A stretch of 64,000 nucleotides of DNA. Source: Clostridia bacterium (GTDB taxonomy: Bacteria > Bacillota > Clostridia > Oscillospirales > RGIG5299). The translations under genes and the position numbers were made by a program. The notes under the pieces were generated by a model, which worked only from the letters and a program-made list of their open reading frames with translations, ran no database searches and was not told the origin of the DNA. Below, one piece after another: positions 4,602-27,763 of the stretch (positions are counted from its first letter, which is position 1; the number at the start of each line of letters is the position of its first letter). The stretch spans positions 11,745 through 75,744 of the forward strand of contig JAFVQJ010000023.1 of NCBI GenBank assembly GCA_017504945.1, written 5' to 3'.

Positions 4602-5780
4602 ATGAATTACAGAAGCGATAAATACGGAAATAATCTCTCTTGTCTTGGATTCGGCTGTATGCGCTTTACACGCAATATGGGAAAGCTCGATTTCGAAAAG
4701 GCGGAACGGGAAATAATGCTTGCCGTTGAAAACGGAGTAAACTATTTCGACACGGCGTATATCTATCCCGGAAGCGAGGCGCTTCTCGGCGAGATAGTTT
4801 ATAAAAACGGAATAAGAGATAAGATAAATATTGCAACGAAGCTTCCGCATTACCTTATTAAAAGCCGCGAAACGCTTGACAAGATGTTTGACGAGCAGTT
4901 AAAGCGGTTGCGTACCGACCACGTTGACTACTATCTTATGCATATGCTCACGGATATCGGCGCGTGGGAGCGTATGAAAGAACTCGGAATAGAGGACTGG
5001 ATAGCCGAAAAGAAGGCGTGCGGTCAGATAAGGCAGATAGGCTTTTCCTACCACGGCAACAGCGAGATGTTTTGCACTCTCGTTGACGCCTATTTGTGGG
5101 ATTTTGCGATGATACAGTATAACTATATGGACGAGCATTCGCAGGCGGGCAAAAAGGGGCTTCAATATGCAAGCTCGAAGGGGCTTGCCGTTATGATAAT
5201 GGAGCCGCTTCGCGGCGGACGTCTTGTAAACCGTCTGCCCGACGAGGTGCTGAAGCTGTTTGCAAGCTCGAAAAGAAATATAACTCCTGCCGCGTGGGCG
5301 CTCAAATGGCTTTACGATCAGCCCGAGGTGACGGTGGTGCTTTCGGGTATGAATTCGAGCGAGATGGTTGCGGAAAATATTAAAACGGCATCGGAAAGCT
5401 TTGTCGGCGAGCTTGATGAATCCGATAAGGAGCTGCTTGCAAGGGTCGTAAAGGCGATAAACAAGAGGATAAAGGTAGGCTGCACCGGCTGCGGATATTG
5501 TGTGCCCTGTCCGCAGAAGGTGGATATTCCCGGCATATTCTCCGCCTATAACCGCCGCTATTCAGAGGGCAAATACAAGGCGCTTAAGGAATATATGATG
5601 TGTACTACTCTCAGAAAGGACTCGACTGCCGCTTCGAACTGCATCGGCTGCGGCAAATGCGAAAAGCACTGTCCGCAGGCGATACCGATAAGGGAAAAGC
5701 TTAAGGAGGCACAAAAGGAGCTTGAGGGTCCTATTTACAAAATAGCGAGCAAGGTTGCAAAAAAAGCAGTTAAGTTTTAA
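4602..5780 (+). CDS. Aldo/keto reductase with C-terminal 4Fe-4S dicluster domain
   Basis: LGFGCMR, NYFDTAYIY, IATKLP, MEPLRGG; C-terminal CTGCGYCVPCP and CIGCGKCEKHCP. Confidence 0.92.
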   Translation: MNYRSDKYGNNLSCLGFGCMRFTRNMGKLDFEKAEREIMLAVENGVNYFDTAYIYPGSEALLGEIVYKNGIRDKINIATKLPHYLIKSRETLDKMFDEQLKRLRTDHVDYYLMHMLTDIGAWERMKELGIEDWIAEKKACGQIRQIGFSYHGNSEMFCTLVDAYLWDFAMIQYNYMDEHSQAGKKGLQYASSKGLAVMIMEPLRGGRLVNRLPDEVLKLFASSKRNITPAAWALKWLYDQPEVTVVLSGMNSSEMVAENIKTASESFVGELDESDKELLARVVKAINKRIKVGCTGCGYCVPCPQKVDIPGIFSAYNRRYSEGKYKALKEYMMCTTLRKDSTAASNCIGCGKCEKHCPQAIPIREKLKEAQKELEGPIYKIASKVAKKAVKF

Positions 5781-17130: not shown

Positions 17131-17166
17131 TTGCGAGACTTCTCATAAGGAAGTCTCGCAGTTTTA
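17131..17166 (+). terminator. Terminator after the phosphodiesterase gene
   Basis: TGCGAGACTTC-TCATAAG-GAAGTCTCGCA followed by GTTTTAT. Confidence 0.7.
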
Positions 17167-17340
17167 TTCGCCAAATATATTTGGCGAGTGATATTGCTTC
17201 GCAGTGATATGATGCTTCGCATCGTGATATTCGGCTACGCCGAGTTTGGCGAATAAAATAACACTGAAACCGCAAGGTTTCAATAACACTATTGCGTAAG
17301 CGATAATATCACTCCGACAAAGTCGGAATATAACTCTTGC
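17161..17340. repeat. Hairpin-ladder element A (GTGATAT-like x4, then ATATCAC-like x4, interleaved with mini-hairpins)
   Basis: GTTTTAT 17161; GTGATAT 17188, 17204, 17224; ATAACAC 17258, 17283; ATATCAC 17306; ATATAAC 17328; palindromic spacers. Confidence 0.85.
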
Positions 17341-17365
17341 TTTCTCAGCAGATTTTTGATATAAT
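17337..17365 (+). promoter_or_regulatory. sigma-A promoter with extended -10, abutting ladder A
   Basis: TTGCTT (17337-42), 17 nt, TATAAT (17360-65) preceded by TG. Confidence 0.7.
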
Positions 17366-17505
17366 ACAATCAGCATGATAGGGGTATGGGCTTTGCCCTA
17401 TGCCTTTGTAATACAAAGGCGAAACTGGCGATAAAACGGAATGACAAATTCTCATTTAGCAAATAGTTGAATTAATCAAAAATTACAATATATGGAGGAA
17501 TTAAA

Positions 17506-27433: not shown

Positions 27434-27462
27434 ATTATATCATAAATTCATATACTTGTCAA
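27434..27462 (-). promoter_or_regulatory. Consensus sigma-A promoter with extended -10, abutting ladder B
   Basis: Minus strand: TTGACA (27457-62), 17 nt, TATAAT (27434-39) preceded by TG. Confidence 0.8.
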
Positions 27463-27635
27463 ATGATGCATCGCCTGCGGCGATATGATGTTTTTCGCTT
27501 CGCTCAAAATGATGTTGCTCCACTGCGTTCCGCAATGATGCGATGTTTGCCCAATGTGCCGCAAGGCACACATCATTAGGCGCAGCCGTCATCATTGGCG
27601 AAGCCGTCATCATTTGCCGCAGGCAAACATCATTC
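27461..27635. repeat. Hairpin-ladder element B (ATGATG x4, then CATCAT x4, interleaved with mini-hairpins)
   Basis: ATGATG at 27463, 27485, 27509, 27535; CATCAT at 27571, 27590, 27608, 27628. Confidence 0.88.
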
Positions 27636-27676
27636 AAAAAACGCACCTTTGTCGGTAGACAAAAGTGCGTTTTTTG
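27636..27676 (-). terminator. Terminator after the tRNA operon
   Basis: AAAAAACGCAC(C)TTTGTC-GGTA-GACAAAAGTGCGTTTTTT directly 3' of the tRNA-Tyr CCA. Confidence 0.75.
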
Positions 27677-27677
27677 T

Positions 27678-27763
27678 TGGTGGGGGAAGGTGGATTCGGA
27701 CCACCGAAGCTGAAAAGCAACAGATTTACAGTCTGCCCCCTTTGGCCACTCGGGAATTCCCCC
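27678..27763 (-). tRNA. tRNA-Tyr (GTA)
   Basis: GGGGGAATTCCCGAGTGGCCAAAGGGGGCAGACTGTAAATCTG...CCACCTTCCCCCACCA; long variable arm; encoded CCA. Confidence 0.95.

Follow-up and report, generated by a model that had tools for sequence, protein, structure and literature searches.

A ladder of repeated words and mini-hairpins behind tRNA-Tyr, probable core of a gene-less and apparently mobile cassette in gut Clostridia

Downstream of a tRNA-Tyr gene in a gut Clostridia genome, one six-letter word occurs four times and is followed by four copies of its reverse complement, with small GC hairpins in between (ladder B in the following). What is this structure, is it peculiar to one locus, and what might read it? 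We addressed these questions in the window (the whole stretch of DNA analysed, 64 kb), in the 1.38-Mb genome to which it belongs (the own genome in the following), and in related genomes; positions refer to the window unless a contig is named.

Anatomy and fold of the ladder B cassette

On the plus strand, ATGATG lies at 27463, 27485, 27509 and 27535, and its complement CATCAT at 27571, 27590, 27608 and 27628. Direct reading and the word count bear out the earlier note, which had described four words, four complements and small GC hairpins between them, and all the hairpins that it named were seen, namely ATCGCC-tgc-GGCGAT (27470-27484), TGTGCC-gcaa-GGCACA at the centre, GGC-gca-GCC, GGC-gaa-GCC and TTTGCC-gca-GGCAAA. 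Ladder B packs into 171 nt 8 of the 31 ATGATG/CATCAT matches of the window, over the whole of which 19.8 +/- 4.4 were expected. Its minimum free energy is -76.4 kcal/mol on the plus strand (z -4.84) and -84.7 kcal/mol on the minus strand (z -6.09), values that none of 200 shuffles equalled on either strand. A census of loci where a 6-mer occurs at least three times and then its reverse complement at least three times returned 27 loci in the own genome, against 0 in each of five Markov-2 simulations. Ladder B is a real, structured, non-coding repeat.

The ladder forms the core of a cassette of ~245 nt on the minus strand, in which the CCA end of tRNA-Tyr, a terminator, ladder B and a promoter follow one another in that order:

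27678..27763, minus strand: tRNA-Tyr (GTA), found by ARAGORN; Rfam tRNA 50.3 bits
27635..27676, minus strand: intrinsic two-way terminator (terminator scan and inverted repeat), first module of the cassette
27461..27635: ladder B, eight words and GC mini-hairpins, core of the minus-strand cassette
27571..27634, minus strand: proximal half-ladder, four ATGATG as read on the minus strand
27542..27570, minus strand: centre, with the hairpin TGTGCC-gcaa-GGCACA (27555-27570) and a 10-nt segment
27463..27540, minus strand: distal half-ladder, four CATCAT on the minus strand and hairpins with GNA loops
27434..27462, minus strand: outward promoter of sigma-70 type, TTGACA-17-TATAAT with a TG extension, 12/12 consensus
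27440..27646, minus strand: 68-aa ORF across ladder B, from the ORF list; not a gene

The tRNA-Tyr closes a tRNA-Thr/tRNA-Tyr unit, and the cassette is bounded on the left by its CCA end. The placement of ladder B at the 3' end of tRNA-Tyr in the earlier note holds in that the ladder lies downstream in the direction of transcription, but a 42-nt terminator, composed of an A-tract, a 19-pair stem, a 4-nt loop and a T-tract, separates the two. At the other end, the promoter (27462-27434) abuts the last ladder word and reads away from ladder B. The same terminator sequence is found with other tRNAs and other word families, and the same promoter, including its spacer, in sibling copies at different tRNAs, which indicates that both modules belong to the element rather than to the host locus. 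A strict promoter pattern was matched at 26 of 73 sibling loci, and, in every word family read, the -35 box directly adjoins the last word or shares letters with it. At this locus, the terminator would end the tRNA-Thr/tRNA-Tyr transcript and the promoter would restart transcription toward the downstream genes; the order of the modules thus suggests a cassette that stops and restarts transcription.

Within the ladder, the proximal half carries three mini-hairpins (H0, 27612-27626; 27597-27605; 27579-27587). The 10-nt segment of the centre (27542-27551) is 100% complementary to 27622-27631, an inverted repeat that corresponds to a long-range pairing (P1) whose partner consists of the 5' arm of H0 and the preceding word; P1 competes with H0. 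Pairings of the P1 type, read by eye, recur in other word families with changed letters, and half-ladders closed by the pairing of H0 with the centre stand alone elsewhere in the own genome.

Folding potential is also a property of the segments between words, since the 60 and 69 distinct inter-word segments have mean minimum free energies of -2.62 and -4.48, respectively, versus -0.37 and -1.27 after shuffling. RNAalifold applied to 46 aligned copies yielded a nested four-way-junction consensus of four word-to-word rungs plus local hairpins. Compensatory changes affect 9 of its 44 pairs, all in local hairpins of the distal half, while the long-range rungs are invariant over the 46 copies, so that covariation neither supports nor refutes the four-way junction. 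In the same alignment, the hairpin units between words vary in number (0-5) and order, as if units had been gained, lost or swapped at the repeated words.

On either strand, loops are TNC in the 5' half and GNA in the 3' half, a placement that makes the design mirror-symmetric. Among the 69 distal hairpins, 33 have GNA triloops (GAA 19, GCA 5, GTA 5, GGA 4), versus 6 GNRA tetraloops, and 44 of the 460 GCGAAGC sites of the own genome lie inside ladders, which occupy 0.53% of it (~18-fold enrichment). C-GNA-G triloops of the GCGAAGC type form unusually stable mini-hairpins in DNA, which makes us lean to single-stranded DNA: we infer that the folded strand is more likely DNA than RNA.

Sibling copies, word families and spread

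A search of one-genome-per-species contigs placed an exact 21-mer from the centre of ladder B in gut Clostridia MAGs, in at least 120 stretches. The 80 of these stretches that were fetched come from MAGs of animal and human guts labelled Oscillospiraceae, Acutalibacteraceae, Ruminococcaceae, Clostridia and similar, and their modules follow the same order as in the ladder B cassette. Fifty-five of the 80 lie behind a tRNA or a tRNA-like CCA end: 36 after a tRNA recognised by ARAGORN (13 identities) and 19 after a pseudo tRNA end of the type '...CCA + A-tract'. Another 17 lie elsewhere and mostly belong to a subtype where a different hairpin replaces the terminator, and eight are cut. In the own genome, a ladder lies directly downstream of 9 of the 31 tRNA genes, and two more of these genes are followed by one placed behind a duplicated tRNA end. 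The suggestion of a tRNA integration hotspot gains support from related genomes, 7 of 17 of which have a ladder after the 3' end of tRNA-Tyr, built on five different words plus one reversed-order type. Among metagenome contigs with an identical tRNA-Tyr end, the ladder comes next in 11 of 56.

The ends of tRNA genes are also the site of a second small element. In the own genome (G000), at least 16 terminal nucleotides of eight tRNA/tmRNA genes recur 123-330 nt downstream. The interval between the repeated ends contains the terminator of the host and the T-arm copied as its reverse complement, together with a conserved core of ~100 nt that exists in two types; no Rfam family matched at E<=0.01. 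Examples are:

C5:33114-33379 (L070): second tRNA-end element
C5:58883-59142 (L071): second tRNA-end element
C8:10782-11040 (L072): second tRNA-end element
C31:112-360 (L073): second tRNA-end element
C21:7371-7640 (L074): second tRNA-end element

Ladders come after the pseudo CCA ends of this element just as after genuine ones. Two 295-nt repeats that are 94.6% identical (G000:C21:946-1240 and 5286-5576; L045) flank a gene encoding a 948-aa GDSL-lipase-like protein downstream of the tmRNA gene. In each of them, a pseudo tmRNA 3' end and a terminator are accompanied by an ATGATAT ladder and by 3 to 5 directly repeated copies of a 9-10-nt word.

The earlier note had also proposed that ladder B is a second member of the family of another ladder of the window:

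17159..17435, plus strand: ladder A, GTGATAT word family, with promoter and 3' tail; Gut-1 match at 17159-17235

Ladder A matches the Rfam family Gut-1 (RF01706) with 58.6 bits. The Gut-1 consensus consists of three mini-hairpins with a 7-nt word between them, and ladder B has this build, with at least three short hairpins spaced by a conserved 7-nt word, although its score of 21 bits (E 0.087), from a match that lies partly on the terminator, is below the Rfam gathering threshold of 50 bits. The model corresponds to the proximal half of ladder B. By its sequence, ladder B is a sub-threshold relative of Gut-1, and the possibility raised beforehand that it would prove to be a known repeat or ncRNA family holds only in this loose sense; matches to other Rfam families (TUG1_2, miRNAs, snoRNAs) were weak, at chance level and far below threshold. 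The own genome has 54 matches to the Gut-1 model at E<=1, of which 20 are above threshold, and the two closest relatives of ladder B in this genome score 28.6-30.5 bits. Kinship of the two ladders is supported by this shared build with another word and by the fact that both are followed by an outward promoter, siblings of both word types driving a PF05635 gene (see below). Word families of the own genome (GTGATAT, GTGAAAT, ATGATAT, GTGAAGT, RTGATGT and a reversed-order type) follow a common plan. In the reversed-order ladders of this genome (C14:20-154, C18:115572-115700, C23:81561-81704), TATCATCA words with GNA hairpins come first and the complementary words second; one of the three precedes a PF05635 gene.

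Comparison with relatives points to spread between genomes. In G001, of the same genus, the flanks are 96% identical, but 94 nt with another terminator stand where 224 nt are found here, and this allele is a replacement rather than a simple absence of ladder B. G003 has an ATGAAAT ladder at the same tRNA-Tyr CCA end. In G027, which belongs to another family, ladder B is present at 91.6% identity behind that genome's own, different tRNA-Tyr, and the cassette is far more alike between bacterial families than the DNA that flanks it. Two further relatives of ladder B in the own genome (~80% identity) are split over four contig ends, and many other ladders of this genome also lie at contig ends. 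Dispersal, presence or absence in close relatives, swapped words and likeness across families together indicate a cassette that is apparently mobile and spreads horizontally.

No target-site duplication is visible at the borders of ladder B, and no transposase-bearing parent was found. The only close empty-site comparison (G001) is a replacement, and the ends of the cassette are accordingly approximate. A metagenome scan with a host-flank 28-mer, aimed at near-isogenic empty sites, gave 0 matches, and comparison by synteny of the other ladder loci with four same-genus genomes, whose assemblies are too fragmented, yielded no clean empty site. DNA contigs over the locus break at the ladder and at the tRNAs, none of them showing an empty-site allele. 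A half-ladder form, in which 27551 is joined to 27621, stands in one contig of low depth (3.8, side 21) and probably comes from another organism.

The PF05635 link and competing explanations

Genes of the PF05635/TIGR02436 family, which encode Avd-like four-helix bundles, recur next to ladders. They are the first downstream ORF in 14 of 36 sibling copies, the other 22 having other genes downstream, and in the own genome each of the three PF05635 genes comes immediately after a ladder and promoter, every ladder being of another word family. Of the 29 PF05635 genes inspected in 41 relatives, none lacks a short-repeat array in the ~300 nt upstream: 20 are preceded by hairpin ladders (10 of them behind a tRNA), five by tandem heptamers and four by inverted arrays without hairpins. 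A repeat count of at least 5 was obtained upstream of 21 of these 29 genes versus 5.2% of 1027 control upstream regions, and, across Bacillota, a period-7 array lies upstream of 16 of 26 PF05635 genes versus 7 of 1030 controls. At the level of genomes, Gut-1 and PF05635 are both present in 17 of the 41, PF05635 only in four, Gut-1 only in two and neither in 18, figures that cover 30 families and in which related genomes are not independent; all nine genomes with at least 14 Gut-1 matches have PF05635.

The arrangement of gene and arrays differs between designs. A complementary array lies downstream of the PF05635 gene in 8 of 21 non-ladder cassettes versus 0 of 7 of the ladder type, in which the gene stands outside both arrays rather than being enclosed by them. 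Several PF05635 genes and their heptamer arrays are embedded in genes for RNase P RNA (L340, L343, in G092 and G174) or for 23S rRNA (L334, L335, in G104 and G120), the RNase P RNA and 23S rRNA host genes having been recognised by eye from the flanking sequence. Five others (L215, L226, L227, L217, L350) lie behind tRNAs with a terminator-like hairpin split by inverted arrays, a design that has a word of the 'cttacct' type and is devoid of mini-hairpins.

As to ladder B itself, a tblastn search found no PF05635 gene or remnant near it, and its G027 counterpart has a 5'-truncated one. The own genome has no PF05635 gene behind any ladder of the ATGATG type, from which it follows that the cognate reader would be absent from this 86%-complete assembly. 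The tail of ladder A resembles the 3' flank of a PF05635 gene (75% over 56 nt, E 3e-5, on C24; by eye nearer to G001:C12), so that ladder A looks like a cassette after loss of its gene. PADLOC gave no match for the PF05635 proteins, whose closest solved relatives (2rld and 2gsc, with 5 chains per entry) are uncharacterised.

We favour, and as a whole hold to be probable, an explanation in which ladder B forms the heart of a modular cassette that lacks its gene here and whose array is read in trans. Record labels place the hosts, gut Clostridia, in Oscillospiraceae, Acutalibacteraceae and Ruminococcaceae. In full, the cassette comprises a tRNA or tRNA-like CCA end, a two-way terminator, an array of 7-nt words and mini-hairpins, its mirror image, a strong outward promoter and, often, a PF05635/TIGR02436 gene together with variable genes. 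The ladder would be the cis-acting part, displaying its 7-nt words between stable C-GNA-G mini-hairpins on a folded single strand, and the trans-acting factor reading these words would most likely be the PF05635 protein of full copies, an Avd-like four-helix bundle also called '23S rRNA intervening-sequence protein'. Such a putative reading could control the adjoining promoter and/or the copying of the cassette. Ladders A and B are both copies that lack the gene, ladder A probably through gene loss, as the shared 3' flank suggests. Linked inheritance alone would give the same association between ladders and PF05635.

The alternative that survives best, although we hold it to be unlikely, is that ladder B acts as a structured small RNA or a 3' trailer RNA, as Rfam files Gut-1. 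Such an RNA would arise from terminator read-through or from its own start and might, for instance, provide an end that resists nucleases, sequester a protein or guide processing. Gut-1 was indeed put forward as a non-coding RNA (PMC2864571), compensatory changes preserve the hairpins, the fold is stable on both strands (z -4.8 and -6.1), and the PF05635 cassettes that lie within genes for 23S rRNA and RNase P RNA can only act at the level of RNA. Two RNA libraries also contain contigs with pieces of the ladder (for example a 78-nt contig on 27461-27538 with 1 differing letter), but they show neither transcription nor strand; these libraries give some cover on the ladder and none on the flanking coding parts, and in a multi-copy family an uncovered part is no evidence. 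Moreover, ladder B lies between a strong terminator and an outward promoter, no promoter was seen to drive it, and its mirror symmetry, with GNA loops in the 3' half of both strands, singles out no one transcript. The excess of triloops of the GCGAAGC type (33, versus 6 GNRA tetraloops) is more typical of stable DNA mini-hairpins, and the copy number, presence or absence and cross-family identity are those of a repeat, unlike those of one RNA gene.

It appears improbable that ladder B is a REP/BIME- or REPIN-like repeat moved by a Y1 HUH transposase of the RAYT/IS200 type that reads 'word + hairpin' single-stranded DNA. Its short conserved word beside a small hairpin, its inverted clusters, its extragenic position behind terminators and the DNA-like character of its hairpins all resemble such repeats, but the expected enzyme is lacking. 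The own genome (86% complete) has no PF01797 match, and, although 14 of the 41 relatives have Y1 genes, only 5 of the 9 ladder-rich genomes do, two of these matches being broken or partial. Not one of the 10 inspected Y1 genes has ladders at its flanks; where both flanks are readable, they have single hairpins of the IS200 kind. Reverse transcriptases are likewise absent from all five genomes of the own genus and present in only 9 of the 41 relatives.

We regard as very improbable that ladder B is one arm of an integrase-type islet in the 3' end of the tRNA, i.e. an att remnant with arm-type repeats. Its position at a tRNA 3' end and its word repeats in two orientations, reminiscent of arm-type sites, would fit, as would the tmRNA gene of the own genome, where ladders placed after repeated tmRNA 3' ends flank a 4-kb insert. 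The last 16 nt of tRNA-Tyr, however, are single-copy in the own genome, the sole tyrosine recombinase gene of which is far away on another contig, and the junction falls after the CCA in 13 different tRNAs, which are not alike at their own 3' ends. Phage and plasmid collections have no match to the 251-nt cassette. In IMG/VR, the 21-mer is present in three contigs, and the copies of ladder B lie at contig ends beside tRNA-like CCA ends; although this placement could suit an islet, these copies are most likely host flank rather than phage cargo. One IMG/VR contig start (L319) has tandem ladder B cassettes with small ORFs between them (ladder, promoter-ORF, ladder and so on), an integron-like layout with no visible recombinase. 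No Y1 transposase, reverse transcriptase or integrase goes with the ladders.

Finally, an ordinary intergenic region or a 68-aa protein gene, symmetrical by chance, is refuted: the 68-codon frame that spans ladder B, and whose conservation would have spoken for a gene, is open in only 13 of the 46 aligned copies, 26 of which have no open frame in any of the six frames, and neither the 27 real ladder loci versus none simulated nor the spread of the 21-mer over at least 120 stretches fits chance.

Significance and comparison with known systems

Since its publication in 2010, the 'gut-only' RNA motif Gut-1 has remained an orphan, and the Gut-1-type arrays described here are halves of terminator-ladder-promoter cassettes. 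These cassettes pile up behind tRNA genes and are associated, both at single genes and across genomes, with PF05635, a very widespread family with solved structures for which we know of no role outside diversity-generating retroelements. A literature search covering sources other than Additional file 1 of PMC2864571, in which Gut-1 is discussed, returned nothing on hairpin ladders downstream of tRNAs or on heptamer arrays next to PF05635 genes. A testable question follows, namely whether the PF05635 protein binds the words, on which strand, and whether it moves or regulates the cassette. The cassettes also matter in practice, as they break MAG assemblies, supply strong predicted promoters to neighbouring genes and mark the tRNA-side site of gene-content difference between close strains.

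Gut-1 is listed as 'human gut only', in an entry that gives no function (Weinberg et al., 2010; PMC2864571). It shares with ladder B an occurrence in gut Clostridia and at least three small GC hairpins spaced by a 7-nt word of the R-T-G-A-W-R-T type. In contrast, the word of ladder B is ATGATGT, and the Rfam model covers one half only, with no record of the second, mirrored half, of the flanking terminator and promoter, of the position at tRNAs or of the link to PF05635.

With REP, BIME and REPIN sequences, the ladders have in common units of word plus hairpin, inverted clusters, an extragenic site on the terminator side, and many copies set against few or no protein genes. They differ in that there is no RAYT/Y1 gene and in that each ladder is made of 4+4 units with different hairpins rather than of doublets of one palindrome.

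The PF05635 protein resembles Avd, the accessory protein of diversity-generating retroelements (PMC10053308). Unlike what such retroelements would require, however, the five genomes of the own genus yielded no reverse transcriptase, and no template/variable repeat pair was seen.

Set beside the intervening sequences of 23S rRNA with an S23p/PF05635 ORF, the hairpin ladders resemble a more elaborate version, placed next to tRNAs, of the heptamer-armed PF05635 cassettes found there. A wider reading, which taken whole we hold to be quite unlikely, would unite the ladders (including Gut-1), the 23S rRNA/RNase P intervening sequences and the heptamer repeats in one mobile system. Here, an oligomer of the Avd-like four-helix bundle would read 7-nt words on a folded single strand, and would steer copying of the cassette toward structured-RNA genes, at their ends (for example the CCA end of a tRNA) or in their hairpin loops, although the cassette itself encodes no transposase, integrase or reverse transcriptase. 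In such a system, ladder B would be non-autonomous, like a REPIN without its RAYT.

The favoured explanation, a gene-less copy of a modular cassette, can itself be set beside these intervening sequences. Both have two complementary arrays of 7-nt words with the same protein family adjoining, both insert in or beside structured-RNA genes without breaking them, and gene-less copies exist. Ladder B, with its 4 + 4 words, has the array and complementary array of PF05635 cassettes, although, unlike the intervening-sequence-like ones, this copy has no PF05635 gene in or beside its arrays. In the intervening-sequence type of design, the gene may lie between the two arrays (8/21), whereas in the ladder type it does not (0/7). 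Ladders are further set apart from intervening sequences by a mini-hairpin after every word, a terminator and a promoter of their own, and a site after the CCA of a tRNA.
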